Part shown: in pieces, positions 3,632 through 53,232 of the stretch | Layout: each line of letters begins with the position of its first letter | Position numbering within the stretch: position 1 is the first letter of the stretch | DNA from: Narcine bancroftii | Taxonomy: Eukaryota | Assembly: GCF_036971445.1 (NCBI RefSeq) | Contig: NC_091472.1 | Coordinates: forward strand, 63,736,001 to 63,800,000 | Length of the DNA stretch: 64,000 bases | Direction: 5' to 3' | Program-made: the position numbers and the translations under genes | Notes under the pieces: model-generated | Told to the model about the DNA's origin: nothing | Database searches by the model: none | Seen by the model: only the letters and a program-made list of their open reading frames with translations

Positions 3632-3633
3632 AA

Positions 3634-13066: not shown

Positions 13067-14838
13067 AAACATATTTAATTGAAAAAGAGCATTTGAAATT
13101 AAAAGGAGATTGGGTGGGACATGTAAATATAATTAAATTCATTCAATTTTAAAGCAAGAGGGATAGTAATTTTGATTAAAAAGGTCCAGAATATTGTTAC
13201 AGACCTACAAATAGATAAGTAATGATATATTGTCAAATATTTTCAGAGATGTGGAGATTTTTAAATTTGTGTGCTCCAAACATTGATGATGAGAAATTTA
13301 TTCAGAATACCACATGAAAATATTTTTAATAGGAGGGGATTCCAATTTATGTTTATATCCATTGTTAGATAGGTCCACTTGAGTAACAACAAGAGCACAA
13401 GCTGCTGAAGCTACATTGGGTTTGATGAGAGATTGAATTTCATTAATGTATGGAGAAAAATTCACCCTAGAGATAAAGATTATTCATTTTATTCTAGTAG
13501 GTTTGATTCATATTCTGGAATTGATTTATTTTTGTTTCGGCTCAAATATAAACTAGGATTTTTGAAGCCGAGGATTTTATCAGATCATTGGCCTTTGTTA
13601 ATAACTATGGAAATGATTGATAAGAAAAAGTCAATATATAGATGGAGAATTCTTTATTGTTGAAAAAGAAAGATTTTTGTGATTTTGTTCAAAATGATAT
13701 AAGGATATTTTGTGCTATGTACTTGAATTCAATAAATGAAAAATTTATTATATAGGATGCTTTAAAGGCATATTTATGAGGGAAAATTATAAGTTTTACA
13801 TCTAAAATTAAAAAGGATTGTATGAGATAATTAAATCAATTAGAAAAATAAATTATAGTTTTGGAAAAGGAACTTCAAAAGTCTGTTTCTGAAGATAAAT
13901 GTGGATAACTGATCAATAAAAAAATTCAGTATAATACATTACAAACTTTTAGGATGAGAAAGTTATTATTAGGATGAGGCAAAGGTATTATGAATTAGGT
14001 GAGAGATCGCATAAAGTACTAGCTTGGCAATTGAAAGTGCCACAAACCTCAAGAACAATTAATGAAATTAAAAAAGATACTAACATAATTACTTATAAAC
14101 CTCAAGAAGTAAATGAATCTTTTAGAAATTTCTATATGAAATTATATACTTTGGAATTTTTAGGAAATTAAGCTAAAATAATTGATTATTTATCACAGAT
14201 AATAATACTGAGGTTAAGTTTAGAACAACAAACTGAACTTGATGTTCCATTTACTGAGGCAATGGAAGAGAAGCAATGAGCTCTTTACAAAGTAATAAAT
14301 CTCCAGGAGAAGTTAGTTTTCCATCTGAATTTTATAAAGAATTTAAGGATTTACTCATTCCAAAATATATGGAAGTACTAGATCAAGCCTCTTCTTCTCT
14401 CCCGGAATAATTTTTGATGGCAGTAATTACTGTGATTCCAAAAAAAGATAGAGACCCTTTAAAACTCTCATAGACTTATTTCATTTTAAAATTTTGATTA
14501 GAAAATAGTAGCAAAAGTTATAAATTAATTAATATGGGTCAGACAGGGTTTGTTTAAAAAAAAAGACAATCTTTAGACAATGTCGCTAGATTGCTTAGTA
14601 TACTTCATCTAGCAAAAAAAAGAGGTGATTTGAATGTTGCAGTGCCTTTAGAAGCAGAAAAACCATTTGATAAATTAGAGTGAAAATTTTTATTTAAGGT
14701 ATTAGAAAAGTTTGGATGTATATTTAACTTTTTAAATTGGATTAGAGCATTATATAATAGTGTTAAAGCTAAAGTAGTTACAAATGGGCAAGTGTCTAAG
14801 CCATTTAAGTTAACGAGATCAAGTAGACAAGTATTTGT
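13067..14838 (+). mobile_element. L1 element A ORF2 resumed (endonuclease to RT domain, broken at RSSRQ)
   Basis: Resumes at the QETHL position where the element broke at 5200 (…IEKEHLKLKGDWVGH); SDHWPL; YYELGERSHKVLAWQL. Confidence 0.8.
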
Positions 14839-16114
14839 TGATGCATCGAATAACTAGAAACCACAAAGTGGTATTCTTTGATGAATGCTTTATTGTTAAA
14901 TTTAACAATACAATGTATAACAGGAGCCCCTGGAAATTATGTCCACCACTAGCCAAGCTCCATCTCCATTTTTAACTAGCGTGCTTCGCATGGACTTGCG
15001 CATGTACAATTGTGTCATAGTGAGTACAGTGGCTGCACCGGGTACAGACAACCAATCGAATCAGCTGTCTACATCCCCTTTCTTGGGCAACCCCCTTCAT
15101 ATACCACAATCCATGTAGGTGTCGTACATTACAATAATTATAGTTCAGCAGTGAGCAGTCATCCCAGATTAATCCTAATATTTTGGGTGGGGCTTACAAG
15201 TGAGCCTGAAGCATGTTATGTAGGTGGAAGTGGATATTTGGGGTGCTTCAGCTTGAAAGGATGTGCTACCTGTGATCACAGGTTGTGGCCATTTGTTTCA
15301 TGGGTTGTTACTGAGGGAGCTCTGGCTACCCCGGGTTCATGTTTTATAGTGTCATCAGGAATGATTTGGGATGGGGGTGGCTGGTTTTTAGTTTAATCAG
15401 GAATGGTTTGGGATGGGGGTAGCTCCTTAATGGGTAGGATGTGTCCATGGTTTCTCCAATACACCCTTCTTTCTGATTTTATCAGGTATGACCTGGGCTC
15501 CTGGCAGCTCCTTTCTACTATGCCATATGGTCATATCCTTATGGCTTGCTCTTCTGCTAATGGCATGAGCGGTCAGCTGTTTCTGTCATAGCATCTTTTC
15601 TGCATTAGCTTCCTGTTCAGCAGTTGAGATTTAATGTCTTGCAGGTTCTTTAACTGAAGCTCCAAGAGTCTCTTTGCCACAGGCACAGTCGTCCGTGTCT
15701 GGCTGGACATAAGTGTGTGCCAGAGAGCCCAATGTGGTGTCACCGGGGGTGTTCCTTAGGTTCAGCAGATTTAGGAACATATCCATATTTTCCCTGTGGG
15801 ACTTCTCCATGAGTTGCTTTGCGTTCTTCACGCCTCTTTCAGCCAACCTGTTAGACTGTGGGTCCTCTGAGCTGCTAATGATGTGGTTGAAATCCCATGT
15901 GGTTGCAAAGTGTCTGAACTTCTTACTGGTGAACCGATAGCAGAGTGTGGGGTGCCCCATGCACTGAAGAGTGTCTCTTTAACTTGATAACAACTACCTA
16001 TGAGGTGACGTTGGGTAAAAGGTCTATCTCAAAACATCCAGAGTATGAATCGACAAATATTGTTGACCGTGCCATTCGGAGATGTCTGTTGCCACGGTTA
16101 ACCAGGAAGGGTGA

Positions 16115-33270: not shown

Positions 33271-36200
33271 TCTAAGTACAATTGAGATGGAAAATCACAT
33301 CAGATGTACAAGGATGAAACACTCCAGGAAGCATGGAGATGAATTTGCAAAATAATATGAAAATATTGTTATTGCATTTCACTCAGTAAAATCAATTTAA
33401 ATAAGAAAAATTAAGGAAAAAATATTTTTTTTCCAGTGATTCAGATGGGCAGTGCCTTGAGATGAGAATTTCAGTTATGCAACCATGGAGAGATTGGCAC
33501 AGTTCAGGGAGGTTTGAGTTATTTTACGATGTTTGCAGATGAAAAAAAGTGGACAGCAGTCAATAACATTTGAAGAGGGTCTAATTTGATAGAAATAGAG
33601 AACTGAACATCAAAGTTTGGAGGGCACACAAAATAAAGAACTCATGGTTAATAGACAAATGAAGGAAGTTTTAAACAGAATACAGAGTATATAAGTGAAG
33701 AAAGCAATAGTAGATGGAGTTCAATGTATTTAAAGTGAATTTGTTTCTATATTATTTATTGAAATTCAATATAATTTAAACGATTAAGTTCTTCCCATTG
33801 ACTTCTGATTATATCAAAGGTATCATTTTAACTCCAAATACAGATTTTTAAAATTCCTTTGGGAAATGCAATGAACAATAAAGATTGGCAGTGGTTTATT
33901 TTGTTTGAAAACAAAAAAATATGTACAATTGAAACTTTGATCTCCCATGAGGTGTTTTTTTAAATCATTTTGAAAAATATTAAACTATACAATTTGTCCT
34001 GATTGTTAATCCTGGAGCCTAAGGCATGAATTTCAGTTCAGAATGCAAATTGTTTAATTTGTGGGAGGAGTTGCATTGAAATAGTTCTTGACAGTTGAAA
34101 TTAGGATATGGATGGAGTCAAGAAAAAGGCTGACGGACACAAGTGAAATGTGGAATACACGATGACTTAACAAGTGGTATGGTCAGTTTGCATCTCAGAC
34201 TGCATTCCCTTACCAAATCTGCCAACTCAAGTCACCTCAACACCAGACCTCACAAGTTATCGCATCAGTAAACCCATTTCCAGCATATCCAATCTTTCTT
34301 ACCAAATCAACCTTATTTATAAAATGGGCCTCACCCAGTACAAAAATCTTTCACTGTACACTGATCCTCAGTGAACCATCTCACCATCCAATATAATCTA
34401 CTTCTTCCATCACCTGGCACTCAAGATCTATATTTGGAGGGAACAACGTGGCTCATATTTTTCCTTCCCCAGTTTGAAATAGATCAATCAATTATAAAAT
34501 CCCACTCCTTGTCTTGCCAATATCAAGTAATGGGACAGGTGAACTGCATTCAAAGTGTCTTTCACTGCCTCATCACGCTGAAAATTACAAGTTCATGAAA
34601 CAAATTACAAAAATGTCCCTTGAAAATATTTCCATAATTATAACTATTTTAAGGACAAGGAAAGATTTTTGTGAAGTGTAATCAGGGTTTGAAAGTTCTC
34701 GGTGTTATCAGTTGGGCAATCAGTTAATTTGTGAAACTTTCTGAACTTGGTTGGTCTTCAAAATGAAAAAAATAGAGGAATCTTGTTTTGATCTTGATTA
34801 CACAAGTCACATAATCCTTTGGGTGAAGAATGAATTCAGCAAGGTTGCAAGGTATGCCATCACAGATATTTTGAGAAACAATTCACCAAGGAAAGTAACA
34901 TGTGCACACCCCATCTTTGATACAAGCTATTTACTAAACATAGGGGAATGTTTGTAAACTTAAACTTAAATCTACAATGTGGAAGAAGAGTTACATACAA
35001 TAGACCTGAGAGAATAGATCAGCTAAAATCTCACTGAATATTAAAGCTAATATTGAGACTCATGTACAATAAAATCAATTCTGAAATATTGGTGCTCTTT
35101 ATGACCTGATATTAATAGGAGTGATTGTTCATTTGTGCCATTAAAGGAGTAGGTTTTGATTCCCAGCAGACTCCCTCGTTATAATCAGGATATGTCAGGC
35201 CTTAAAATTTTGACACTCTCTTGCTCTGGGGTACACCAAAAAACCCTAACCTGGGCATATTAGGTCCCAATCTTCCCTAAAGTTACAAAGCCTCCAGCCA
35301 TTACTTCTCATTGTCTGCAGTCTTTTTAAGAAAAATATGTAGGTAAAGGTACCCAAACAATGAATTTTAGAGGGCTAAATCCAAATCTGTATCTGACATG
35401 GTCATGAGGATCGTGATATTGATTCCACTGTACCAATTGAATATATTACTTCTCATGTTAATGATTTTGGCCTGCTATTATCCAAAAGAGGTTAATGATT
35501 ATGATAAATTTCTTTTGGCTAACTTTGGTGGGTTTACCTGATGTGAAATCTTGCAGGACACAGATTATAACCTCATTTATTACACACAAAGTATGTGTGC
35601 ACTCATCACTCATATTTTTGTCACTTCAGATAGTAATATACATATCTGATTGCATAACAAGTTGTGAACATGGAACTGGGATTGGGATAGGAAGCGAAAA
35701 GAACAGAGGTGCTAGCTTTGCACACAAATTCAGTGCTGGAAGACTCACATATGGACTTTGGTAGGGAAGCCTACAAAAGGTAACTGATGAGTAGAACTGC
35801 TAAATGCTCAACACATTGGAATTTTGCTGGAAAATTCCATTTTAAAGTTTAGTAATGTGGGGAAATATAGCACTAATATATTAACTCTTGAATAATTTCC
35901 ATTGTACTGAGCTTGGAGAATATTGTTTCTAGCAAAAAACTGATGTGATGTACATAATAGGAAATTAAATTGAGACTTCTATGGAAAACAGTTGCCAAAG
36001 GCTTTTCTTCCTCAGTTCTATCAACATCAACTCAGAAAGGAAATGAATCATTTGTGAAGGAGAGGGCGTAGTGAGAGAAAGGAGTATACAGTTGGATGGA
36101 ACTTTATTTGGGCAGGGAAAATTGGAGATCAGGATTTTGGCAGTTGCATCAGGTCAATTTAGGGATTGGGGTGGTGCAAAGTTTCAGTAAGATGAGAATT

Positions 36201-36446
36201 AATGGAAAACGGTGTGAAAAGAAACAAAGGCTAAAATTATGGTGCATGATCTGTCAATGCCCAGAGGCAGTTATGCTGAATGACATCTGTAGTGAAGGTT
36301 GTAAAGGGATATGACAAATATTAGAGTGGGGTATATGAGATTTAGTCTTCAAGAAAATCCATGCATGAAATCTGTAAAACAGGCCCCTTTATGTCATGCC
36401 TACCTAATGAAAGTCTGTCCAGAAGAGACTTCAAAATATCTGTTCC

Positions 36447-36650
36447 ATATAACATATAACCATATAACAATTACAGTATGGAAACAGGCCATAATCGGCC
36501 CTTCTAGTCCGCAGCGATTTAAGTGAACAGTCTGCAAAATCATCGAGGACCCCCTTCCACCCAAGCACACAGCATCTTTCTTCTATCCCGTCGGGAAAGA
36601 GATCCAGGAGGATCAGAGCCGGCACCACCAGGCTGAGGAACACCTTCTCC
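36447..36650. mobile_element. CR1 3' tail (-, 36447-36512) joined to a Rex-type 3' fragment (+, 36520-36650)
   Basis: cataacatataaccatataac...ggaaacaggcc tail; IIEDPFHP...PSGKRSRRIRAGTTRLRNTF. Confidence 0.7.
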
Positions 36651-37550
36651 AACAACTCCCTCTACATTGTCTGTACCCCATGGCCATGAAGTACAATGCT
36701 GATTTTTTAACAGTGCTCACCGAATGGGAACATTGTGAGGATGGCTGGTGTTGAATTGTTCCACACCAGACCTGGCAGTCCCTCCTTTTCTCCCTCTTGT
36801 TAAATGTAATTGGTCCTTCAGCCAGAAGGTCCAGCAAAATATTGCTTTACTTCATGTGAACAATTCCCAAATGAAATATTCATTTGCTCAGAGCAATGAC
36901 AAGGCAGTAATTTGATCAATAGATTTGGATGAGTGAATAATCCAAATGGGTGAAACTCCAATAGCTTCTAACCACAGATAATACGTGAATGTCAAATCCA
37001 CGCTGGGTTCTTTAAATGTTTAAATTTTAGTCATTCAGTATGGTAACAGGCCCTTTCAGCCCATGCCACTCAATTACATCCAATTCTATGTTGTTTGACT
37101 TCAGTGGACGTGTCCGGATACCTCCATTCCTCGAGCAATACATGTTTTGATTTCTTTGCTCAAAGCACATCAATAAACAGAATAAAAGTCATTTACTCTT
37201 AGGAGAATGCAGGACTACGGTGAAAAATTTCCAAGAGGAAAACTTAAAAATCGATAAATGATTATCCAGAAAATATTTGATGAACTGTGGAACAAAAGGT
37301 TTATCGTAAAATTTTAAGTGTTTGTTATGAAGTGATAGAACGTCAGTGGATTATGTGATGGACAGAAACCCAAGGATGGATGTTACAGTATATTGTAGAA
37401 GACAACAAAGGCTAAAATTATGGTGCATGATCTGTCAAATTAAATAGTGCCAAATCCATTTTTAATCTTAATATATTTATTTGATTTGGTCAAAAGATTA
37501 AACATTGGGCTTGACTAAAATTGTACAACAATACTTAATTCAAAAAATGA

Positions 37551-38565
37551 TGAGAATCAGAATTTATTGTCCTGAGCAAGTCATGAAATTCGATGTTTTG
37601 TGGCAGCATCATAGTGCAAACATTCATTTTATAACCATTAATATATATAAAAAAAGTAAAAATAATAGTGCACGAAAAGTAAAGCAGTGTCTATGGTTCA
37701 TTGATTATTCAGGAATCTGATGTCAGCATTGAGTGCTCATCATTAGGCTCCTGTACCTTTTTCCTGATGGTATCAGGGTGAAGAGGACATGGCCTGGGTG
37801 GTGGGTCTTTGAGGATAGAAGCTGTTTTTTTAATGACACCACCTCACGTAGATGTCCTCAATGGACATCTGATGCCCGTGATGTCAGACTCGTCTGACAT
37901 GCGTACATGCGAGAGCAACCCGGTAGAGGTTGTTGGAGGAGAATAATGCTTCCCTTGCCAGGATGATAAGATGGTCCACTCCCTGGAAGCTGCAGCTCAC
38001 CACGTAGAGGTTTTCGATGCTCGCCTCTCCTATCCTCCAGCATGGCCAACACCAACAACAGCAGTCACTGAGGGGCCCCACTTGGAAGAGATGATCGCCT
38101 CTGCCGATGCAGTCTGCCACTGTAAATACTGCGGGGCTTGTTATGGGTCAGACAGGTGCTCCCAGAAGAACCCCCTTTAAGAATGGGGTGAATGTGGTGA
38201 TACAACCACTACACTGGCCGCACTTCTACGAGCCTACTGCAGGGGGCAACCACGGTACCTGCAGATAGGCAACCTGGGAGGCTGGCCCCACCTTCCCACT
38301 GTCAATCACAAACCCAAATAAAGACTTGAGCCAGCCTCTTTGGGAGTCAGTTGGGTATGTGGAACCAGGAAGGTATAGAGAGACCTGGTGTGTACAGGTT
38401 TAAGCTGTCTGTTGTACAGTCTGTGAATTTTGTTTCTGAATTCTTCGCACAGCGGAGTTCACATGTTGACACCAGGAATCCGAAGTTCTTGACCCTCTCC
38501 ACAAATAAGACCTTGATGAGGACTGGGTCGTATTCCCACAACTTCCTCCTGAATTCCTGAAGTCT
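37551..38565 (-). mobile_element. Rex1/Babar 3' fragment interrupted by a Gypsy relic
   Basis: Tail agaatcagaatttattgtc; similar to 51621-52300; resumes at 38445 (VERVKNFGFLVST). Confidence 0.82.
37890..38430 (+). mobile_element. Internally deleted Gypsy relic: gag fragment, PPT and 3' LTR starting at 38193
   Basis: LLEENNASL...MVHSLEAAAHHVEVF parallels the gag at 57516 (LLEQRQLSL...ANILEVAIHNTESF); purine tract aagaatggggtgaa followed by TGTGGTGA. Confidence 0.7.
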
Positions 38566-39147
38566 ACTGAAATGATTAGTAGAATGCATAAAGCTTTATT
38601 TTGTGGAATTGTGAATCATCACATTTTGAGGAAAAGGTTTGAGTCAGTAATTTAATAGAATCATCCAGATGAAGAAAGAACCAAAACTACACGACAAATG
38701 ACTTGTTATTAACTGATGGAGTAAAACATTTCAAAGTATCAGAAAAATATTATCACACAAATGAAGGAAATAATTGACAGATAGGCAAAGCTTCATTAAA
38801 CAACTCATGGCTAACTAAAGGCAATGGATTAAACTCATAGAAGTGCCAGAGGATATAACAGAGTAGAGAATTTGTACCGAAGAATGCTATTGAGATACAG
38901 TGGTGCAAGATACAACACAGATTCATTGCTGGAAGCTCAACTTACAGTCAAGTACAATACTGTTGTCAATGTGTAGAAAGGTTTTTGTTATTCTGATATT
39001 TTTTTAATAAAAATTTGAATATATTCACATTTAATTATTTTACAAAAAACCTTCAAAGTCCACCCCTTTAGTGTTGTATCCATACAGTTCCATAACTGTA
39101 TATCATTGCACTCATTTGCTATTTAGCAGCATTGCTATGCTGATCAT

Positions 39148-39410
39148 TTTTTTACCCAAATTAGACTGTATTCATGATAAATTATTTACAAAAGGAGAAC
39201 CATTCAATGTCTCTTCCCACCCTCAATTTCATATCCATACATTTCCATTACTACATTATTACTTTCATACTTTTTATACCATAGCCAGCACTGTGGGACT
39301 TTGTCGTTACTCCACCCTCTGTTGTTTGAGGGACTTCCCCTCGGTCACAGTCTCAATGCCCAGTAACGAAAGGACTCTAGACTGTGGTTCTACCCTACAT
39401 TAGCCTCAAA
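39148..39410 (-). mobile_element. Tx1/Keno-like 3' end fragment (X0)
   Basis: Same 3' UTR as the copies ending at 41845 and 45640 (tagactgtattcatgataaattatttaca...ggactctagactgtgg). Confidence 0.8.
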
Positions 39411-39534
39411 ATGTCTGCAGATGTTGATCAGTCAGTGGATCGATCGTGTATCTGAACAGAATATGATTACGTCATCCATGTGCAGGGAGATCTTGTCCTG
39501 AGTGCCTCCACTGCCTGGCATCATCAATCCTCTT

Positions 39535-39888
39535 ATAGACAATAGGAGCTGGAGTAGGCCCTTCGGCCTGTCGAGCCAGCACCACCATTTTACAGATCAT
39601 GGCTGATCACTACCATCAGTACCCCTTTCCAGCCTTATCCCCATAACCCTTAACTCCTTTCCCCACTAGAGTCTTATCTAACTCTCTTTTGAACATAATC
39701 AGCGAATCTGCCTCTACCACCCTCTGTGGCAGAGCATTCCACAGATTCACACTTCTCTGGGTAAAAAAATGTTTTCTCATCTCCGTCCTAAAGGGCCTAC
39801 CCTGTATTCTTAAACTATGCCCTCTAGTCCTCGTCTCCCCCATCATTGGGAACAAGTAATCCGACTTCACCCTGTCTATCCCCCTGAT
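39535..39888 (-). mobile_element. Well-preserved CR1 3' fragment
   Basis: IRGIDRV...TRTRGHSLRIQGRPFRTEMRKHFFTQRSVNLWNALP. Confidence 0.92.
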
Positions 39889-40103
39889 GGATTCAGCAAA
39901 GAGTCTGTGCAGCACCAAGTAAGACTGGAGAGAGTGAGCAACCTTGCCTAACTCCAGACTTGATAGGGAAGTGATCTGATACCCACTCATTGATTTAGAT
40001 TGTGCTATGGATGTCAATGTAGAGCAGTTTTTAATCCCATTTCATATTCCCTTCCCAATGCCCATTTAGGAGAGCACATCCATGATATATTTTTGTGATA
40101 TAC

Positions 40104-40165
40104 AGGCAGCACAGTTGATTTAGGGGTTAGCACAATGCCTTTACAGCACCAGTGATCGGGATACC
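40104..40165 (+). mobile_element. tRNA-derived SINE head fragment
   Basis: ggcagcacagttg...ggttagcacaatgcctttacagcaccagtgatcggga resembles the A-box region of chondrichthyan SINE heads; B-box missing. Confidence 0.55.
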
Positions 40166-40344
40166 ATTCATCAATCTCAGCCTGTGAGAAGAAGCTATTT
40201 CCCAGCCTGGCCGTCAATGATACATTCTGTGAAATTTGGCATTATGCAATGTGGAAGTTATATGAACACCATATTACTGTATATACTTAGCAAAGCTATA
40301 TGGGATACTGAACTGACAATAAATTGAACTGTTTAATTTTGTTC

Positions 40345-41831
40345 ACTTTTTAAACTTTCATGTAAACACTTTATTATCCTGAGGAGAAGCTGGTACTGTC
40401 GCCAGGGGTGGGGGGTGATTCAGCCATGTACCCACTTCTCTGTCCCCTGGCTGGTTTGTATTCTCTTTCTCCCAGAGGTTGGGGGGGAGGGGTCAACACC
40501 TCTGTACTACTCCCAATCTACCAGAGCTGGGGGGCAGGGGGTTGGGGGACCCCTGGAGCTGGGGGAGGCGGGGTGGACACTGGTTGCTGTACATCCCATC
40601 ATTGGCCATTCTCATAACCCAATTTCTTCCTTTCTTTCCCCTCCATCTTGGCACTTCCTCAGTCTTGGTGCGGCGCTTTTACTAGCATGATTCTCAGATG
40701 AGAGGTTGCTGGCTTCTGTTGGCACCTTGACCCTTTTTTCCCCACTGCTTGCAGTGTCTGTTGCCAGGTTCTTCTGTGGGGCTTTTTGGGTTTTCTTCCT
40801 TTTCCTCACCATCTGCCATTTTTCCTCCACAGCTTTTTTCTTCCCGACTGGGATTTAAAGGTTGAAGGTGGATGTGCTTGAGGTCTCCTCTCGCCCTTGA
40901 TCTCGGCCTCTACCGGGGTCTCTGTTGCAGATGAAAAACCTTGCTGGAAGTGGTGATTTTTCCCATTTGCCCTCATTACCTCTGCATAGGTGGCTACACA
41001 GTTTGGGCTGGTCTATAGAAATGTCCTTCTTTCCCACTCAAGTTGTAGTACTTGCTCTCTGCACAGTCCTTGGTCTAGTGGCCTTCCTACTTGCATTTCT
41101 AACAGATGACTGCACTATATTTGGCTGCCATGTGTCAGATATGTTGCAGTTTCTTCACACCCTGTGCTGTCCAGCATAAACCAAGTACCCTCAATTTCCT
41201 CCAATGGCAAACACCATTGAATGTCCTTGACTGTGTATGTGGGTTGAACATGTGCAATGTTATCACTTGTTCCTTCTGTGGTGGAAGGGTGAAGAGTGGC
41301 TGTACTTTGAATAGTGAGACTGGACCCATGTTCCCCTTCTCCTGGAAATCCCGAAAAATCCTCTACCATCCTGCCAGGGTCTTGAGGGTCATGTCAAAAT
41401 GACTGTTATCCATGATGTTCTGGTGGCAATAGATGTCCTTTTACCCAAATTTGCAGCATTCCATCAAGACCTTCTGGACAAAGAGGTCAATGGGAAAATG
41501 GGGATCCTTTGCTCACATCCTTCACTGCCACCATAACAGTGTTCTAGATTCTTTGTCCTCCAGAGGAGTTTGCTGCCACAGCCATCCTCTTGAGGCTGGT
41601 GGAGGTGGCCTTACTGCTGGAAAGGGTATTAGATTAGTTTCCTAAACCTAAACAGCATGGATCCATCCCTGGATCAGCAAGCCAGCTCGCACCAGGCAAT
41701 CTGTTTCACTCCAAAGCCTCTCAATTGTCTTCCTCTTCATTCCTATTCCTTCTGGATACTACAGATGCTTCTCACAGATCCAATTGATCAGCTCATAGCA
41801 AGTGATCTTAGCCAAAAGGCCAAAGAGCAAT
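40345..41831 (-). mobile_element. Tx1/Keno-like element X1: U2 head, 5' UTR, ORF1 relic and its own AATAAA; no ORF2
   Basis: LFKVQPLFTLPPQKEQVITLHMFNPH is homologous to X2 ORF1; KWQMVRKRKK block; 5' UTR shared with X2. Confidence 0.8.
41803..41831 (-). pseudogene. U2 snRNA 5' fragment (nt 1-29) at the head of X1
   Basis: 25/29 identity to vertebrate U2 ATCGCTTCTCGGCCTTTTGGCTAAGATCA, including 19 consecutive matches. Confidence 0.88.
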
Positions 41832-41836
41832 CTCAT

Positions 41837-44800
41837 AATTTTTTTTAAACAAAAATAGACTTTATTCACAATAAATTATTTACACAAGGGAAACTGTTCA
41901 AAGTCTCTTCCTATTCTTAATTTTGTATCCATTCATTTCCATCACTGTACATTGATACACTCATTTCTATTTACACCATTACCACCACTGTGACACTTTG
42001 TTTCTTCTTCTCCTTCTATTGTTTGACAGGCTACCCCTCAGTCTCAGCCATCAATGCACAGTAATGGGAAGACTCTAGGCTGTGGTCCTTCCCCATAGCA
42101 CCTTCGTGTTGTCTGCACCAAAACCTCACTGCATCCCTCAACAGGTTATCCTGCACCTTGGAATGTGCCAGTTGGCAGCATTCATGCATCAACATCTCCA
42201 TGTGCTGAAAGACCAACTGGTTTTAGGCAGTCCACAGTGCCTCTTTCACTGCATTGTTGGTCTTCCAGCAGTTCTGGATGTTTGACTCTGTGTGTATCCC
42301 AGGAACAGTCCATAAATCAGTTCTCTGTCACACTGCTGCTGGGGATGAACCGTGTCAAGGATCCTTGCATCCTTCTCCACACATTCTTTTCAAATCTGCA
42401 AGAGGTGGGCAGCTGTATCCTTTCCACCACAGTCATCTCAAGAACAATGCATGTTGTGGGTGATGTTCTGGTTGTACAGGAAGGATCTGACTGGGAGGTT
42501 TATCTCACTGCCAGCCAGGTTAAGTCCTGATGCTTGTAAGTGAGCACCAGCGATGAGACATTCCACCACATAACTGCTCGGGGAACCACCTCACCAGGCC
42601 TATTGAATCCTCATCTCTCAGTGTCTGCAGGACGTTCCATGCTGGCCACTGCCTGATGGCCTTTTGGTCAAAAGTGTTGGTCTGGAAAAAACTTTTCCAC
42701 CAAGGATAGGTGGTGTGGCAAAGTCCAGCTCATTGGGATATTGCAGGCAATGGGGCCAGGCCCATCCTTCGCAAAACCTGGGACAGGTAGAACCTCAGCA
42801 CATAGTGACACTTGGTGCCCTCATAATTCACTTCCAGAAGTCTTACCTGACCCAAAGGAATGGATTGAGTCAGTAAGCTCCCCCATGGTAATTGGCTGCT
42901 CCAGTCTTTCCCTCTTGCTGTCGTCTAAAGCCTCTGTGATAGAGGATAGGAAGTTTTGGGAGGCCATTCTATCTGTAGCCTTTGTGTCATACAGTTCAAT
43001 ATAAAAGGATTTTCAGATCCTCTGTATGCCTGTCTACGACAATGTGACTGCACCATCCACTTCCTTAAGGATGTGGCTCACAGAGCTCTTTGTGAACCTT
43101 TTGGAAGAAGAAGAAGAGCACATCTCATCCTGCTCCACTGTGCGGATTCTGGATTGAAGGATGAATTTGGAAAACTCTAAGAGTAATAGGGAGGCTTTCC
43201 GGCTCTTCACCACTTGGAATTCTTCCCTCACATCCATTCCTCCCGACTACAGAAGGAGGAGTTGCTGCAGATCATTCTGGAGTTGGCTCAGTTCCCTCTA
43301 CCTCAGTCTTGCTCTCTGAGGATAAAGAACCTATTGATGTTTTCCTTGGTCATTTCCCACCAGGTCACTGAGGGGTCAAAGAAGGGTCTCAGAGTTCTCC
43401 AACCACTATACTCCTTTAGTTCCTTGACATTTTCTGGCAACAGCAGCTTCACATTCAGCTTTTACGTTTTGCCTATGGTCCTCATATTTGTGACAGGAGG
43501 TGTAAAGGAGGAAGTGGTCAGGGAAGAACACCATTATAACATCAGTGGTCTGACCATGACAGCCTTCGACAGGAAGACAAAGTCAATCCAAGACTAGGTT
43601 GAACCATTTGATCTCGACCAGGTGTCTGCAGCTGTGCTCCACCTGCAGGGTTGCTGAAGGTGCCGCACAGCTGTGCATCCTTTACTGTCTCCATCAAGAG
43701 TCTGATGAATCTGTCCAACCTGCTTTCATCACCGCCAGATTGTACAGCTGCATCAATGATGCAGTTGAAGTCACCGGCCAGAACACCAGCCTGGACGTCG
43801 CCAGCAATGTGCGGGCTACTAGAAGATGGCAGTCAGCCTCTCGCTTTGCATGGGCGAGGCATACATGTTGATCAGCCAGAATGGGGTATCACAGTACTTT
43901 AGGCCCACCAGAAGAAGATATCCCCCAACCACCTCCTTAACCATGGTGATTACAAAGTTGCCTCCCCACAGCAAGATACCCAGACCGGATGTACAACAAT
44001 CATTCCCCCGAGCACTCAAACAACTCATGGGGCCACCATCTGGATCACTTCCAATATATTCTGAGGTGTGGTAGCCCACAATCCTGTATGAAGGTTACAT
44101 CTGCTTTGACTTTGGCATCATGTAGTACTTTTAACACTGCACACACTGAGAGTTGCTACTTTAATCTCCATTGTTGTTCATAGGAGTCTCCAATTTGCCA
44201 TCTTTACAGTCCAGTCAGTGTCACTCAACTACAGCACTGATTCCAGGATCAGGAACAGGGGGTGATCTTACTCTGTGTGTTGGGTCTTCTCGGGCAAAAC
44301 AAATGGTGTTACTGGAGGGAGATCCACCTGTGCTCCTTTTCCTCCATCTCCTGTATTCTTCTGACATAGTAAGGGCCTCTGCACTGCTCCCAGTCTCCTG
44401 AAGCTGGGAGCTAATGGCCTCTGCCTTGCTCCCAGTCTCCAGGAGCTGAGGGGATCACTGGATGCTGTACATCCCATCATCAGGCTTAATTGTAACCCAT
44501 TTACCTCCTTTTTTTCTTTGTCTTTGCACTTCCTCTACCTTAATCTGGTACGTGCTGGTTTGTTTGCACCTGGACCCTTTTCTTCTTCCTGCTTGCAGTG
44601 TGAGTTGCCAGTTTTTTCCGTTTATGATTTTCTTTCTTTTCCTCACTGTCTTCCATTTTCCCTCAGCTCCTTCCTCCAATGACTCCACCTCCTCAGGCTT
44701 GTGGCTGGGGTTTGAGGGTGAGAGTTGAACCTGTTTGGGGTCTCTTTGCTCCCTCTGGTCTTGGTCTCAGTCAGAGTCTCTGTTGCAGTTGAGGTTGAGG

Positions 44801-45632
44801 GGATGTTGACTTCACTGGGGGTGGTGATGTTGGCTGCTTGCCCTCTTATTGCATGTCCACATGTGGCTCCATGTTTTGGGCAAGCCTATAGAGGTGGCCT
44901 GCTTCCCCACACAAGTTACAGCACTTGTTCTCTCCACTGTCCATGTTCTGGTGGCCTTTCTGCTTACAATTCTTACAGATGACTGCTGCATTGGGCCACC
45001 ACACCCCTAGGTTTGTGCAGTTCCTGCACACCCTGGGCTATCCAGCACAGACCAGGAACCTACAATTCATTCCAATGGCGAACACTGAGAAGGTGAATGA
45101 TGGCATCTTTGCTGTCCTCTCAAGCTTCACCTTCACTTGGCATTTGCTGGTACAGATTCCAAACGTGTATTTGACTTCCAATTGGGTCCCTGTCCTCTCT
45201 ATATAATGGTCCAGGAAGGTGAATAGGTCCATGACTGGCACATGTGGGAAGAACATGTGCACGGTTGTCACTTATTCCTATTGAATAGGAAGGGTGAAGA
45301 GTGGCTGCACCTTGAATAGTGAGAGTAGAGCCACATTCCCCTTCTCCTGGAAGCCCTGGAGCATCCTCTGCCATTCTGCCAGGGTCTTGAATGTCACATT
45401 AAAGTGACTGTTATCCGTGACATCCTGGAGGCAGCAGATGTTCTTCACCTCAAATTTGAGGCATTCCATCAAGACCTTTTGGACAAAGAGTCTCTCTTAT
45501 TCTAACAGTCCTCTCACCTGTCTTCCTCTTCTTTCCTCTTCCTTCTTGATGCAACAGTTTCTCACAGATCCAGATGATCAGCTCACAGCAGATGATCTAC
45601 ACTTAATTTTACCCAAAAGGCTGAGAAGAGAC
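41837..45632 (-). mobile_element. Tx1/Keno-like element X2: 5'-complete, ORF1 with CCHC knuckles and an internally deleted ORF2
   Basis: CRNC...CKNCKQKGH...CNLCGEAGH; endonuclease GNDCCTSGLGILL, LINMYASP, LAGDFNCIID; RT core largely missing; 3' UTR with AATAAA and A-tail. Confidence 0.88.
45597..45632 (-). pseudogene. U2 snRNA 5' fragment (nt 1-36) at the head of X2
   Basis: 30/36 identity to U2 nt 1-36, ending at AAGTGTAG and then switching to element 5' UTR. Confidence 0.88.
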
Positions 45633-46390
45633 AATTTTTAAAATTCCATAAATAGATTTTATTCACAATAAATCATTTACAAAAAAGAGAACCATTCAAA
45701 GAGTTTTCACTCCCATAATGTCAGTCATATCTATTCATTTCCATCAATGTACATTGTTACATTTGTTCACTAAATACAACATTGCCACCACTATGGCACC
45801 TTTTTGTTCTCCCCCTCAGTTGGTTGAGGGTCTTTCCCTTGGTCTCAGCCCTTCAAGCCCAGTAATGGGAGGACTCTAGACTGCACCAAGTCAGAGTGCG
45901 TCCCTCAGCATGTACTCCTGTAGCCTGGAACGTGCCAGTCAGCTGCATTCCTGGACCGACAACTCTGTATGCTGAAAGACCAATAGGTTTTGGGTAGACC
46001 AAAGAGCATCTTTCACCAATGGTTGACGGTATTCCAGTGGTTCTGGATGTCCAACTCTGAGTGCGTCCTCAGAAACAGTCCGTAGATCAGAGAGTCCTCT
46101 GTCATGCTGATGCAAGGGAAAAACCGTGACAAGGACCCTTGCATCCTTCTTCAAAGAGGTGAGTGACAGTTTCCATTCCAGCGCGCAGTCATCTCAAGGA
46201 CATGTGTGTTAAGTGATGTTACAGTTGTACAGGAAGGATCTGACTGGGAGGGCTCCTCTCACCACAAACCAGGCCAAGTCCTGGCGCTTGCTTGTGATCC
46301 CTGGCAATGAGGCATTCTGCCAGATGACCTGCTCACAGAACCATCCCACCAGGTCCATTGAGTGCTCATCTCTCAGTTTCTGCAGGTCAT
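45633..46390 (-). mobile_element. Tx1/Keno-like element X3, 5'-truncated 3' end
   Basis: VKDALWSTQNLLVFQH...ECS (Tx1 ORF2 C-terminus); 3' UTR homologous to X2. Confidence 0.85.
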
Positions 46391-48471
46391 TAGTACAAAT
46401 ATGATAAATTTGTTAAAAGAATTGATCAGATCTGTGTGAAGGTCTGGATACCTACTGCAGATAGCACAATAAAGTCACATAAACATACAGCATCAGTTTA
46501 TATGTTAATGCAGTGATGAGAAACTTTATGAAGGCAGAGTTGAGGTAATCTGAACTATTTCTGACAAAGAAATTAAGATAACTACCATTTTTTTAAGTTA
46601 TCAAATATTTTGATGATTAAATTTGGACTAATTGGGAACTTATTGCAAGCTCTCTGTGACAACAACAAGAAAAGAATTGTTCTGCAGGAATGTTTATACA
46701 AAGATAAAAGTGCCAGAGAGAGCAGATAAGAAAGATATTTTAAAGAACCAAAGGGTTAGCATATAAAAGTTCACAGGTTCATGATTAAATATTCTTTCTC
46801 TTGGAAGCACACATAGTCAAACTGACTAATTTAATTGGATCTCTGTTCTCATCCAATCTTATAAATTGTGTTTTGTAATATTAAATGTCAGAATTAAGAC
46901 AAACTTGCACACAAACTCAAGTCAAAAATTCCGATGATCAATTGGCAAAAATAAAACCTGTGAAGGAACTACAATTTGCATTTGAGCAATAAGTTTGAGA
47001 AGTCAGCATTTGATGCTCGTGTTCCAGTGAAGTGGTAATCAGCAATAATGAAGTAATAATTTCAGCAATCTGTGAAGATTAATTCTGAAAGCAGCACCAC
47101 TATGGTATTATTTGAAATTTCTAGTTTTCAGCTGGTGCATTTATTTGTTTTGTTTAATTAAAAAAATCTACATGGCTCTAATCAACATTCAGCAAGCATA
47201 ACATTTCTGCTCAGACATACGGCTGCAACTGAACTAGGTTACATCTTAAAATATGTACATTTCCCAGGAGACACTGAAGAGGCTCAAAGCTGGAAACAAT
47301 GACATCATTTCCTCTACATCATTGCCTGTACATGGTTGTTTACACATACAACCATTAATTCGAACCACATTCTAGGACACCACTGTACCCTGTCACAGGA
47401 CAGAACACCAAGAATTCTCAGAGATCCAGCTACAAATTAAGCCATTTCTTGCCACTGATTAAAAATATTGTGCAAATAATTAATTACATTCTATCCACTT
47501 ATTAAAAATAGATTACATATGGCAAGCTTTACTCTGTTTTAACCATCAGCATAAGCATGAAACATTTACCTTAATCCAATATGAAAATGCTAAATGCAAA
47601 TTTTAATGTCTAAATTTTAAAGGATGAACTGGAGCTTAAAATGTTCCACCCAAACAAAAGGATAATACCTCACGTACACATTATCATGAAAATAAATAAG
47701 GAAGCCAATGTTTTCTGGACAAGGGAATTTATTTGGAAGTTTTTCTCATCATCTTTGGTATGTGAAAACCTCGAGGGAACCCTTAATTAGATTTCCAATC
47801 AGATTTGAAACTCTCTTCCTAAAATTGCAGGTGCTGTGGGAAAGATTGAAATACGCATGATTATAAAAGCAAGACCTAAATCATGATCTCCCACAGCAGT
47901 GAATACACTACCATTTTAATTTTTTGAGGCTGTAATCCTGTCTTCAGAAATCTTTTTTTTTAAACCCAGCTTTATACAATGGGACATTGTCCACCTCCAG
48001 TTCCTTTCTTGATGACAGGTTTTTTATATTTTCTTCTTGTCTCAGCTTCCATTCTGTTTTCATTATTCACCAGCTGTAGTACTCCAGAACCAGCCACACC
48101 TCCAGCTTAAATATTCTTGTAGTTAAAATGCTGGCATTGATCCAAGAATGTTAAATATCCTGCAGTTACATGCACTCTACAAAAATCAGGGCAAATCTAA
48201 TTGAACCAATGACTGCAGAGTGAGTCCACTCTCAATTTTTAACCCAAGTGACAGAATATGTCACCAAGTAGTGATTGTGATTTTCCAGAACAAATCAGCT
48301 CCAGATTTCACTACATCTTCTGTACAAACGTGGATGAAAGAGCAGAGTTCCAGAGAGGAGGCAAATGTGACAATGCTTGAAATCAAAGCAGCATTTGACC
48401 AAATGTTCCACAAAAAGATCCAGGTAAACTTGAAGTCAATAGCATCAAGGTGGAAATAGTTTGGTGGTTAT

Positions 48472-49470
48472 CTTTGGCTTGGCTTCGCGGACGAAAATTT
48501 ATGGAGGGGTATGTCCACATCAGCTGCAGGCTCGTTTGTGGCTGACAAGTCCGATGCGGGACAGGCAGACATGGTTGCAGCGGTTGCAGGGGAAAATTGG
48601 TGGGTTGGGGTTGGGTGTTGGGTTTTTCCTCCTTTGTCTTTTGTCAGTGAGGTGGGCTCTGCGGTCTTCTTCAAAGGAGGTTGCTGCCTGCCGAACTGTG
48701 AGGCGCCAAGATGCACGGTTTGAGGCGATATCAGCCCACTGGCGGTGGTCAATGTGGCAGGCATCAAGAGATTTCTTTAGGCAGTCCTTGTACCTCTTCT
48801 TTGGTGCACCTCTGTCACAGTGGCCAGTGGAGAGCTCGCCATATAACACGATCTTGGGAAGGCAATGGACCTCCATTCTGGAGACGTGACCTGCCCAGCG
48901 CAGTTGGATCTTCAGCAGTGTGGATTCGATGCTGTCGGCCTCTACCATCTCGAGGACTTCGATGTTAGGAATGAAGTCGCTCCAATGAATGTTGAGGATG
49001 GAGCGGAGACAATGCTGGTGGAAGCGTTCTAGGAGCCGTAGGTGATGCCGGTAGAGGACCCATGATTCGGAGCCGAACAGGAGTGTGGGTATGACAACGG
49101 CTCTGTATACACTAATCTTTGTGAGGTTTTTCAGTTGGTTGTTTTTCCAGACTCTTTTGTGTAGTCTTCCAAAGGCACTATTTGCCTTGGCAAGTCTGTT
49201 GTCTATCTCGTTGTCGATCCTTGCATCCGATGAAATGGTGCAGCCGAGGTTGGTAAACTGGTTGACCATTTTGAGTTCAGTGTGCCCGATGGAGATGTGG
49301 GGGGGGGGGGCTGGTGGTCATGGTCGGGAGCTGGCTGATGGAGGACCTCAGTTTTCTTCAGGCTGACTTCCAGGCCAAACATTTTGGCAGTTTCCGCAAA
49401 ACAGGACGTAAAGCGCTGAAGAGCTGGCTCTGAATGGGCAACTAAAGCACCATCGTCTGCAAAGAGTAGT
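48472..49470 (-). mobile_element. RTE LINE, 5'-truncated and well preserved
   Basis: LLFADD; 249-aa ORF with LGCTIS...LLFGSESW...QLRWAGHVSRM...CNRCNHVCLSRIGLVSH; one frameshift at a G run. Confidence 0.95.
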
Positions 49471-49694
49471 GATTGTGGGTGTGACTCATTTACACCCAAT
49501 CATTTTGTTGATTTTTCAATGAGCTTCCTCAGACTCAGAAGCTTTTGCTGATTTTATTGTTCCATTCAATGCCATTTGTAAACAAATAAAGTTCATGTCT
49601 GCATCCAGCAAGACCTGGACAACATTCAGGTCTTTCCTGAAGATGCCACTAAAATGCCAGGCAATGATCTACAGCTCGAGGTTTTTCTTTAAAA

Positions 49695-50726
49695 CCAAGG
49701 TTCCCCCATGGTGGACTCATTCATAAAGTAATGAGATCCGTAGAATCTTGGCTGTGGGGATAAACAATTGGGTTGCCTCTAGAAAGCAGAGAGTATTAGT
49801 GGATAGAAATTATTCTGCATGGAAGTCAGTGACTAGTGGAGTTCCACAGGGATCTGTTCTGGGACACCTGCTATTTGTGATTTTTATAAATGACCTGAAT
49901 GAAGAAGTCAAGGGCTGGGTCAGTAAGTTTGCAAATGATATGAGGGTTGGATGTGTTGTGGATAATGTTGAAGCCTGTCAAAGGTTACAACACAACATAG
50001 TCAGGATGCAGAGTTGGGCAGAAAAGTGGCAGATGGAGTTCAATCCAAATAAATGTGACGTGCTACATTTTGATAGGTCAAAATTGAAAGCAGAGTACAT
50101 GGTTAATAGTAGGATATTTAACAGTATGGATGAACCGAATGACCTTGGAGTCCAAATCCATAGATCTCATAATATCACTGCACAGGTTGATAGGATGGTT
50201 AAGAAGGCCGATGATATGCTGGGCTTCATTAATCAAGGGATAGAGTTCAGGAGTTGTGAGGTAATGCGGTAGCTCTACAAGTCTCTGGTGAGACACATTT
50301 AGAATATTGTGTTCAGTTCTCGTTATGTAATTTCAGGAAAGATGTGGAAGCTATGGAGAGGGTGCAGAGGAGCTTGTATTGCATGGATTGGAAAATATGT
50401 CTTATGAGGCAAGATTGGCAGAGCACCTTTTTCCCAGGACAAGAATAGCAAACACCAAAGGGTATCTGTACAAAATAAGGGAAGTAAAGTTTAGGGAAGA
50501 CATCAGAGGTGTTTTTTTTTACACAGCCTAGAATACACTGTCAGGAGTGGTGGTGGAGGCTTGAACAATAGGGGCGGTTAAAAAACTCAGAAACAGGCAC
50601 ATGAGTGAAAGAAGAATAGAGAGTTATGAGGTAGGGAGAGTTTTGGGTTTTTTTGGTAGGTACATATGGGTCGGCATAATATCATGGGCCAAAGTCCTGT
50701 ACTGTGCTGTTGTGTTCTATGTTCTC
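49695..50726 (+). mobile_element. CR1 LINE RT and 3' fragment
   Basis: VTSGVPQGSVLG.LLFVIFINDL...SKFAND...WAEKWQMEFNPNKC; tail gttctatgttct. Confidence 0.93.
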
Positions 50727-53232
50727 AATACACTGAATACTGAAAGACAAGACCATTGCCAAGCTCCCCACTCTCTTCTGCCAAACATTCACATTTTGAG
50801 GGTAACCACAAAATCTTTACACAGTCTGCAAATCACAAGTTAGAATCTTACCTTGGAAGCTCCAAAAATAATCCAAGACAAAGCAGCCCACAGATTTGTA
50901 CTCCATCCATGACAATAACATTTATTTCTTTCTCCATCAGTGCAGAGTTCCTGCTGACTGCACTATCCACAAAGTACACTGTAATTAATCAGCTAGGTTT
51001 TTCCAATTGCATGTTCTATGATATCTATTACCAAATACAAGAGCAGCAAGCAGCTGAAAATATCATCATCTGCATTAGCTTCTCAATGTCACACCTCAAC
51101 CTGGCATGGATATATAATTGATTGTCTGCAGGAGTACCTTCACCAAAGCTATTGCAGTAGTTGAAGATACAGTTCACCATCACCTTCTCTAGGGCAATTT
51201 GAAAGGCAATAAATGCTACCTTGCCAATGACACAGTTTCTGAATCATAGAACAGCACAGGAATAGGTCCTTCAGCTAATGTCTGTACCGACAATGATGCC
51301 AATTTAAACTGATCCCATCTGCCTGCACATGGTCCATATCTGACCACCCCATCCCTCCAATCTGTCTGTTCATGTGCTTGTCTAAATATCACTGAAATGT
51401 TATTGTTTATGCTTCCATCCTCTCCCCTGGCAACAAATTACAAGCGCCCTCCACTCTCTAAAAAAAAATTGCTGCACATATCTTCTTTAAATTCCCTTTC
51501 ATGTTAAATCAATTTCGTCTAAATTTCCTTCCAAGGAAAATGACACTAGGCCTCTCATAATTTTATTTAAGGTCACCCTTCAGTTTTTGCTACTCCAAAG
51601 AAATCAATCCAAGTTTGTCTAGAATCAGAATCAGAATTTATTGTCATGAACAAGTTTTGCAGCAGCATCTCAGTGCAAACATTCATATAAACCACCTTAC
51701 AACAATCAATTCAAAAATAGCGCACGAAAAGTCAAAGTAAGGCAGTATTTTTGGTTCATTAATCATTTAGGAACCTGATGGCAGCAGGGAAGAAGCTGTC
51801 CTTGTACCACCGAGTGCTCATCTTCAGGCTCCTGTACCTTTTTCCCCAATGGTAGCAAAGTGAAGAGGGCATGGCCTGGTGGTAGGGGCCCTTGAGGATA
51901 GAGGCTGCTTTCTTAAGACACTACCTCACGTAGATGTACTAAATGGAGTGACGTTTGGTCCCCGTGATGTCGTAGGCCGAGTTAACAAGCATCAGGAGTT
52001 TTTTTCTTGTCCTGTGCATTGCCACCTCTGTATCATACAGTGATGTAAGCAGCCAAAATGCTCTCCATAGTACACCTGAAGAAGTTTTCGAGAGTCTTCA
52101 GTGACATTCCAAATCTTTTCAAACACTTCACAAAGTATAGCCACTGGTGAGCCTTCTTCATGATTGCATTGACATGGAGGTTCCAGGACAGATCCCTGGA
52201 AATGTTGACACCCAGGAATTTGATGTTCTTGACTCTCTCTGCTACTGAGCCATATGAGGACTGAATCGTGTTCTCCTGACTTCCTCCTGAAGTCCATAGT
52301 CATCTCTTGGTTTAGCTAACATTGAGCACAAGGTTGTTTGCATCTCACCACTCAATAAGCTGATCTATCTCCCTCCTGTACGTTTCCTTATTGCCATTTG
52401 TGATTCTGCCAAAAACTATGCTGTAATCGGCAAATTTGTAGATAGCATTGGAATGATACCTCGCTACACAGTCATGGGTGTATAGTGAGTAGAGCAGTGG
52501 GCAAAGTATCCTTGAGTATGCATGTGTTGATCGTAAGGAGGAGACGCTGTTTCCAATTTGTACTGACTGTGGTCTTCCGATGAGGAAGTTAAGGATCCAG
52601 ATGGAGAGGGTGGGGTACAGAGGCCCAGGGTTTAGAGCTTCTTGATCAGCAATGAGGGAATAATGGTATTGAAGGCTAGCTATAGTTGATGAAGAGTGGC
52701 CGTATGTATGAGTTGCTGTTATCGAGGTGATCCATAGCTGAGTGGAGAGCCAGCAATATTGTGTTTGCTGTGGAGCAATTGTGACGATAGGTGAACTGCA
52801 GTGAGTCCAGACCTTTTCTCAAGGTCATGTTAATTCTGACCAACACCAAGCTCTCAAAGCATTTCATCACAGGAGATGTTAGTGCTACTGGGTGATCGTT
52901 GGTGAGGCAGCTTACACTGCTCTTCCTGGGCACTGCAGTAAAGAGAAGTTGAAAATGTCCATGAATACTCTGGCTATTTGGTTGGCACAGATTTTTCAGT
53001 ACCCTGCCAGGTACACCATCAGGGCCTGATACCTTTCACCCAATTGAATGATGTTCTGATGTTGGCCTCAATGACAGATATCACAGGGTCCTCAGCCTTT
53101 ACAGGGATTCTAGTAGGCACTGTTAGGTTCTCCTCAAAGCAGGCATTGAAGATGTTCAGCATATCAGGTAACGAAACATCACCGCCATCTATGGTATTCG
53201 CCCTCATTTTGTAGGCTATAATGGCCTGCACT

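Follow-up and report, generated by a model that had tools for sequence, protein, structure and literature searches.

A stacked array of U2-headed Tx1-type retrotransposons in Narcine bancroftii: serial insertion into one short target as the favoured explanation

We analyzed a 64,000-nt stretch of the Narcine bancroftii genome (RefSeq assembly GCF_036971445.1, contig NC_091472.1, positions 63,736,001 to 63,800,000), henceforth referred to as the window. Its minus strand carries, between 46387 and 38999, four head-to-tail pieces of one family of long interspersed nuclear elements (LINEs), 67-80% alike in pairwise comparison, whose 5'-complete copies begin with a piece of U2 small nuclear RNA (snRNA). 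On this strand the units are ordered X3, X2, X1+X0, and X-1. Judging from the sequence, we lean towards four separate insertions that, within one burst, hit the same short A-rich target at a unique site. The stacked array combines a known kind of element with a known way of stacking, and the process has already been described. The initial annotation had seen a trimer of which only the outermost unit is truncated; a fourth unit, X-1, closes the array and, although 3'-most, is 5'-truncated as well. The family resembles Keno, which, according to Kojima and Fujiwara in 2004, is reportedly a U2-specific element of the Tx1 clade.

Nested target copies at the joints

Units, joints (J1 to J3), and target copies (S_up and S_dn) are located as follows. 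ORF stands for open reading frame, UTR for untranslated region, and RT for reverse transcriptase.

46401..46414, minus strand: S_up, upstream target copy, AACAAATTTATCAT, 11-13 nt before X3; flank unique
45635..46387, minus strand: X3, 5'-truncated; C-terminal zinc-finger part of ORF2, 3' UTR, A-run
45633..45639, minus strand: J1 (X3/X2), A5 plus TT; remnant of a 7-nt duplication or direct poly(A)-to-U2 joint
41839..45632, minus strand: X2, 5'-complete; ORF1, broken endonuclease, RT deleted at ~42825, 3' UTR, A-run
45597..45632, minus strand: U2 head of X2, nt 1-36; 30/35 against the genome's own U2 gene
41832..41846, minus strand: J2 (X2/X1), A8 plus the 7-nt spacer TTATGAG, likely the upstream target duplication of X1+X0
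40381..41831, minus strand: X1; head, 5' UTR, and ORF1 of the third unit
41803..41831, minus strand: U2 head of X1, nt 1-29; nt 30-36 altered or deleted
39147..39539, minus strand: X0, RT fragment b, 3' UTR, and A-run, from family comparison and tblastn
39134..39153, minus strand: J3 (X0/X-1), AAAAAAATGATCAGCATAGC, upstream target duplication of X-1
~38999..39135, minus strand: X-1, fourth unit, ~135 nt of 3' UTR, 5'-truncated
38987..39005, minus strand: S_dn, downstream target copy, AAAAAAATATCAGAATAAC; flank unique

All four units end in an A-run, followed by TT at J1, TTATGAG at J2, TGATCAGCATAGC at J3, and TATCAGAATAAC in the downstream flank, which gives spacers of 2, 7, and 13 nt at the three joints. 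The A-run of X3 (45639-45635) stops 2 nt before the X2 head and that of X2 (41846-41839) 7 nt before the X1 head. Both tail-to-U2 joints reported initially are real.

The joints were compared with family tails elsewhere in the genome. A total of 139 tails was assembled from 58 top blast matches minus one duplicate and 82 pattern matches from contigs C1 and C5; 117 of these have a readable A-run and served for comparison, while the 22 without one were set aside. J3 agrees with S_dn at 17 of 19 aligned positions plus one gap, a match reached by none of the 117 other tails and by 3 of 941 random tail pairs, and X-1 is therefore taken as an insertion of its own. At J2, agreement with the sequence behind the X0 tail extends over 12 of 14 positions. 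The spacer itself matches J3 at 5/7 (6 of the 117 tails do as well) and S_dn at 5/6 (2/117; 8/117 in either register), which gives modest support to a separate insertion of X1+X0. J1 is uninformative, since 26 of the 117 tails match equally well. S_up agrees with the J2 and J3 copies at 10/14, as do 3.6% and 3.1%, respectively, of random 34-nt segments of the window. The target copies thus point to nested duplications (clear at J3, likely at J2) rather than to one duplication around the array, as template jumping along its whole length, the mechanism proposed in the initial annotation, would have it. Such nesting of J3, J2, and S_up with S_dn favours serial insertion over a single run, and the alternative which that annotation had listed, serial insertion, is the best reading.

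Under serial insertion, target-primed reverse transcription would start at a T-rich/A-run nick, and each insertion would duplicate the target and leave the site open for the next copy. Either X3 or X-1 may have come first, both orders fitting the data, and the duplication made by X2 would be short and mostly hidden in the A-run.

Equal ages and stacking across the family

Private substitutions amount to 11.0% in X3, 9.4% in X2, 10.1% in X1, 11.9% in X0, and 13.8% in X-1 (chi-square p 0.17), and 24 dispersed tails average 11%; these values come from the pairwise method, distances from the multiple alignment looking inflated. The great differences in age that had been named as a point against the initial model are therefore not seen. 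Rare states are not shared between the units beyond expectation, and in the tree, which is star-like, the units do not cluster. Equal ages, together with these two observations, point to units from one burst rather than to late duplication, and a late tandem duplication was ruled out on the same absence of shared rare states and grouping. Unit age cannot separate jumping from serial insertion.

Stacking is a habit of the family. In 6 of the 139 tails (L059, L183, L188, L239, L294, and L298) the tail leads directly into further family sequence, ~300-600 times the chance expectation of about 1e-4 per tail, and the partner is 5'-truncated in all six. Looser associations occur at L234, with a 100-nt gap between tail and family sequence, and at L207, with a tail 223 nt upstream. 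A locus bearing the tail three times with a GT microsatellite (L301, G000:C1:450323262-450323599) is a local tandem duplication and was not counted.

Tail-to-U2-nt-1 joints, on the other hand, are not a family rule. Besides the tails, 43 heads were examined (35, with 8 added later; top blast and pattern matches, hence biased to well-kept copies). No direct joint of this kind was found elsewhere among these 43 heads and 139 tails, the nearest pair lying ~80-120 nt apart (L028). A genome-wide pattern of tail, gap, and head, with a sensitivity of ~16% (13/35 x 11/26), returned only J2, so that at most some twenty such joints exist, and a DNA search with the J2 joint gave no other match spanning both halves among the best 40 of 600 candidates. 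The joints are far above chance, for which 0.001-0.003 are expected genome-wide (75-120 heads, 3,000-5,500 tails, 3.33 Gb), and chance is excluded as their source.

Other explanations of the array

A mixed origin is possible but doubtful. X3 and X2 would then stem from one event, in which the RT ran to U2 nt 1 of the X2 RNA and jumped to the poly(A) of X3, with X1+X0 and X-1 inserted separately and with S_up and J2 as the one duplication around the X3+X2 pair. J1 can be read accordingly, as an A-run joined to ATTG (U2 nt 1-4 after CpG decay) plus a 3-nt insertion; it is equally a perfect 7-nt duplication, AAAAATT, shared with J2. That X2 is 5'-complete, an event of 1.5-4%, would also fit, as would the extra U1 or U2 pieces that precede 3 of the 43 heads, and 5' snRNA additions by template switch have been described for SINEU-2 (PMC4494074). 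Against it, the low-sensitivity pattern and the sampled heads and tails gave no other tail-to-head joint, and the extra U2 pieces, which stop at the Keno site (nt 37), may represent copies inserted into U2.

The model of the initial annotation goes further, with X1+X0, X2, and X3 copied in one run by successive cap-to-poly(A) jumps as in R2, and we consider it unlikely. R2 is said, on the authority of Bibillo and Eickbush in 2004, to jump end to end from template to template. Both large inner units are indeed 5'-complete while X3 is truncated, the ages are equal, and S_up resembles the downstream target. However, the model needs a non-templated origin for the 7-nt spacer of J2, which resembles what follows the X0 tail. 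X-1 shows that this very site received a separate insertion, and the partner is truncated at each of the 6 other direct joints. Jumping by Tx1 elements on full-length RNAs was not found in the literature excerpts covered.

Heads after tails, target-made spacers, and equal ages would also result from unequal exchange between target duplications, by which one full-length copy was tandemly duplicated soon after insertion and then suffered deletions, internal deletions being common in the family. We hold this to be very improbable: without shared rare states or grouping in the tree, the exchange must have followed insertion almost immediately, the spacers differ in length, and X3 and X-1 start at typical truncation points. 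Least credible of all is an endonuclease preference for a site just upstream of U2 nt 1, the shifted preference considered initially. Two such joints stand in the array, whereas none of the 43 heads follows a tail, none of the 139 tails precedes a head, the pattern finds J2 alone, and no family tail lies before any of 30 U2 gene or retrocopy loci or 19 young U2 fragments. For this genome the preference is largely refuted.

Several observations weigh against serial insertion as well. Two of four units are 5'-complete, which has a probability of 0.001-0.009 under independent truncation; only the selection of the locus by its heads softens this objection. J1 holds no readable duplication (26/117), the match at J2 is modest (with a looser score, 15/117 tails equal it against S_dn and 9/117 against J3), and a single event would leave S_up as well. 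Of the six direct joints elsewhere, most lack a spacer after the A-run, which fits a fresh long poly(A) and template jumps equally well. The extra snRNA pieces (L095, L330, and L331) may show RT jumps beyond the U2 cap. The site of the array differs from the hammerhead-like repeat preferred by the family (see below), and the empty site is unreadable because both flanks are unique in the genome.

Structure of the units

Three further features of the third unit are relevant to its interpretation.

40212..40380, minus strand: fragment of a foreign high-copy repeat, ~170 nt, containing the AATAAA formerly assigned to X1
39881..40210, minus strand: X0, RT fragment a, likely X1 continued after an internal deletion
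39540..39880, minus strand: LINE insertion that we take to be CR1-like, later, splitting the RT of X0; placed by the ORF found there

Using the U2 gene of this genome (L061) as reference, U2 nt 2-36 match the X2 head at 45631-45597 (30/35, E 5e-6) and nt 1-29 the X1 head at 41831-41803 (25/29, with nt 11-29 exact), which bears out the two heads noticed at first sight. No significant U2 match past nt 36 was found anywhere in the window with this reference, as had been stated. Rfam detected no U2 over 34000-52000, the heads being too short, and gave one chance U3 match. In X2, the tblastn alignment has a gap at amino acids 465-968, corresponding to the missing RT.

The initial annotation had ended X1 at AATAAA and placed X0 about 1 kb away as a separate 3' end. 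Both points need correction. The signal belongs to the unrelated repeat at 40380-40212; family RT sequence restarts at ~40210, right after this repeat, and continues through the CR1-like insert into the X0 tail. RT fragment a is 62% identical to the P0002 RT over 37 amino acids, and fragments a and b adjoin, without the insert, in copies L091 and L097. As the order from X1 to X0 is collinear with other family copies (L091, L097, L099, L100, and L106), X1 and X0 are most simply regarded as one internally deleted element, a common state in this family. A reading of X1 as an ORF1-only, HAL1-like element was dropped when AATAAA proved part of the foreign repeat. This repeat has 2,332 genomic candidates at 83-91% identity, and the whole element measures at least ~880 bp. 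Other copies (L124-L127) end in ...CCTG/CCCG-TA, like a DNA transposon, which it presumably is; no terminal inverted repeat was seen in them.

X-1 lies directly behind the X0 tail, and its best genomic matches reach 72-80% over query positions 9-150. An assembled contig from one sequencing run spans 38267-39206 without differences from the window. Among listed sequencing samples, a single one, probably that of the assembly itself, contains the stretch, and no RNA sample is among them. The orthologous locus was not found in the short pieces of a second organism within sequencing runs. Elsewhere in the window, a second LINE cluster at 6300-14850 (plus strand) comprises three L1-like ORF2 copies that share one orientation and are 63-65% alike; their ends, near 9900, 13050, and 13730, resemble poly(A).

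The U2-headed family in the genome

Searches with the X2 head and tail gave 112 and 2,857 candidates, respectively. The exact head pattern matched 19 times (13 in the family and 6 by chance; 4 in the control), the exact tail pattern 666 times (2 in the control). The tail pattern is present in 7 of 26 tails found by other routes, from which we estimate ~2,500 tails, next to an estimated 100 or so heads, in copies that are about 11% decayed; the 5'-complete fraction is ~1.5-4%. In all 43 heads examined elsewhere, some of them 5'-shortened, U2 sequence gives way to one and the same 5' UTR at nt 36. Since every 5'-complete copy examined has this joint, the U2 head belongs to the element itself rather than having been acquired at the array locus.

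ORF1 of X2 contains ZCCHC3-type RNA-binding domains (Pfam PF23057, E 7.5e-11, and PF23058, E 2.2e-7, both over the cut-off) and CCHC knuckles (zf-CCHC weak, E 0.01). Vertebrate L1 ORF1 is of the coiled-coil type, from which the RNA-binding domains and CCHC knuckles set Tx1 apart. As for ORF2, tblastn with P0002 and P0003 covers the endonuclease, RT, and C-terminal parts across the units, complemented by Pfam searches of these proteins and P0010. ORF2 relatives carry an endonuclease, an RT, and a zinc finger, the nearest named one being a Mobula hypostoma protein with 74% identity. By these features the elements classify as Tx1-type LINE copies, with a predicted APE endonuclease, RT, C-terminal zinc finger, and poly(A) end, lying outside any U2 gene as initially proposed. 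In a quick RT tree with ten family fragments, nine share one branch with the Mobula protein (SH-like approximate likelihood ratio test, SH-aLRT, 100). Amphibian elements are the sister group of this branch (93), and the L1-like copies of the window stand apart. The references in this tree bear no reliable clade name, none of the protein matches had a Keno name or accession, and L149 is a long-branch outlier.

The family is dead and dispersed, every copy seen being broken. No intact ORF2 was found, the longest open frame among the best 150 of 17,805 candidates measuring 265 amino acids. Nearly every 5'-complete copy (L091-L110 and L330-L347) has at least one large internal deletion, in differing places. 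Target duplications of ~7-13 nt starting in the A-run are visible in the full-length copies L104, L024, L108, and L092. At one locus (L005 and L027, G000:C1:35392293-35392906) two family U2 heads lie face-to-face 360 nt apart, as an inverted or twin-primed arrangement.

Relation to U2 genes and Keno

The U2 array of this genome (G000:C27:67963633-68009590; L061-L077 and L128) consists of 16 near-identical, intact, evenly spaced 2.9-kb units and one decayed edge unit with a promoter. It contains no family sequence and none of its units is interrupted (best 40 of 175 and of 48 candidates). The search for source copies in U2 arrays, suggested initially, thus yielded no copy under a U2 promoter in the assembled array. 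U2 sequence from nt 38 onward follows none of the 139 family tails by blast, with one 7-mer chance match in 117; the 3' flank of L330 is an assembly gap.

The Keno site in U2 (PMC6136364, PMC4640811) corresponds here to GTGTAGT^ATCTGTT, nt 37/38; the head ends 1-2 nt before it. The family and Keno are alike in having an APE endonuclease and an RT, in that the head stops at U2 nt 36, adjoining the Keno insertion site 37 nt into U2, and in that the preferred site of the family shares GT^ATCT with the Keno site (PMC4640811, PMC6136364, PMC4494074). The family differs in that U2 nt 1-36 travels with the element, no tail continues into U2, and the U2 array is free of insertions. By target it therefore falls outside Keno, and it appears to work like a Keno derivative with loosened specificity.

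In our view the family probably goes back to a Keno-like element that resided at nt 37/38 in a U2 gene and whose transcription began at U2 +1. Such a source would explain both ends of the head; its copies would later have disappeared from the U2 array, the units of which are nearly identical. That a source lay under the U2 promoter is plausible; U2 fragments with an end at nt 36-39 also arise in this genome along another path. Of 19 young dispersed copies of the U2 5' part (L129-L147), 97-100% identical to U2, 6 end at nt 36-39 and the rest at 59-60 or 81-90, so that the end point of the head alone is no proof of residence in a U2 gene. These young retrocopies carry target duplications of 10-17 nt, pointing to recent or ongoing activity of a LINE on U2 RNA in this genome. 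The head may instead have arisen, with appreciable but lesser probability, by one template switch onto a 3'-truncated U2 RNA. The 6 young copies ending at nt 36-39 would then reflect a natural RT start on U2, the U2 array holds no source copy, and Kojima favours a template switch for SINEU heads (PMC4494074). However, the shared GT^ATCT and the extra U2 nt 1-37 in front of L330 and L331 imply that the enzyme likely cut U2 there. Moreover, without an upstream promoter another one is needed, and none was identified.

Preferred target and additional snRNA pieces

Nine of the 43 heads (L002, L014, L019, L020, L023, L212, L216, L322, and L323) border on one short repeat, in the same orientation and inside a span of ~24 nt, against 0.49 expected and none on the other strand. 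The repeat profile was trained on 11 copies from other loci and replaced a hand-made motif that had found 2 of 35 heads. Beside tails, the repeat occurs on the same strand in 3 of 139 (0.86 expected, p 0.056) and on the other strand in 4 of 139; the difference between heads and tails is significant (Fisher p 0.002-0.006, smaller sets), 5'-complete copies being enriched at the repeat about ten times. L104, L105, L106, and L333 lie between the two halves of the repeat, and behind L340 stands the downstream half, indicating that these five copies are insertions into the repeat. The preferred site reads GGTTATGT^ATCTTT, its core GT^ATCT being that of the Keno site in U2, and 5 full-length copies have their 3' ends there or no more than ~5 nt away. 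In most truncated copies (73/117), just an A-run and a subsequent T are seen.

Copies of the repeat contain, by eye, a minimal hammerhead-like core, (C/T)TGATGA-A-GGGC-loop-GCCC-GAAAC, in agreement with the minimal hammerheads known from Penelope-like elements (PMC6155905). Rfam gave no hammerhead match on 8 repeat loci.

The extra snRNA in front of 3 of the 43 U2 heads is a 5' part of U1 in L095 (221-330) and a U2 piece up to nt 37 in L330 (342-412) and L331 (minus strand, ~380 nt from the right end). As a speculative proposal that we rate as rather unlikely, the family RT may jump from the capped U2 end to other RNAs (its own poly(A) at J1, U1 and U2 pieces elsewhere), full length may depend on the site, and a Keno derivative may have escaped U2 by way of a ribozyme-bearing mimic, the U2 head helping to finish insertion.

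Comparison with known systems

The array itself, a fossil of repeated insertion, is of little weight. The family gives the crocodilian U2-headed Tx1 elements a counterpart in a cartilaginous fish. It bears on a question left open by Kojima, namely how snRNA-headed elements are transcribed without an upstream snRNA promoter (PMC4494074). A U2-like target mimic linked to full-length insertion would, if true, document stepwise loss of specificity in a site-specific LINE. As all copies seen are broken, the mechanism is testable only in a relative with a living family. No description of this family was found in the literature searched, which did not include Repbase; the supplements of PMC4494074 and PMC4640811 may list further U2-headed families.

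The closest parallel is the crocodilian Tx1-Mar group, in which Tx1-11_Crp has a U2 head and Tx1-2_Crp, Tx1-2B_Crp, and Tx1-4_AMi bear U1 heads, all clustering with Keno (Kojima 2015, PMC4494074). In the same account, tandem SINEU-3 copies sandwich a duplication, which was interpreted as sequential insertion. Tx1-Mar and SINEU elements share with the present family the snRNA head, dispersal outside U2 genes, another repeat as target, additional U1 or U2 sequence gained at the 5' end, and tandems whose copies are separated by a duplication. They differ in host and target, Mariner-N4_AMi in crocodilians as opposed to a short hammerhead-like repeat in a cartilaginous fish. Here the preference for the repeat is partial (9/43 heads, 3/139 tails), and the GT^ATCT core shared with the U2 site is not described for Tx1-Mar in the excerpts of PMC4494074.

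Tailless U2 retropseudogenes have been described (PMC5322556, PMC4494074), and this genome, too, contains tailless U2 copies that stop at nt 36-39. Together with R2-like jumping, they could explain J1 and the extra snRNA heads; such jumping would not, however, predict target-like spacers inside the array. Double insertion is regarded as the usual source of tandems of retrotransposons without long terminal repeats (McGurk and Barbash, bioRxiv 10.1101/158386), and tandem Utopia-1_NVit copies occur in U2 genes (PMC4640811). The array agrees with these double-insertion tandems in its head-to-tail arrangement and in the target duplication kept in the joint, most partners being 5'-truncated. It differs from them in comprising four units, two of them 5'-complete, at a unique site of a vertebrate genome.

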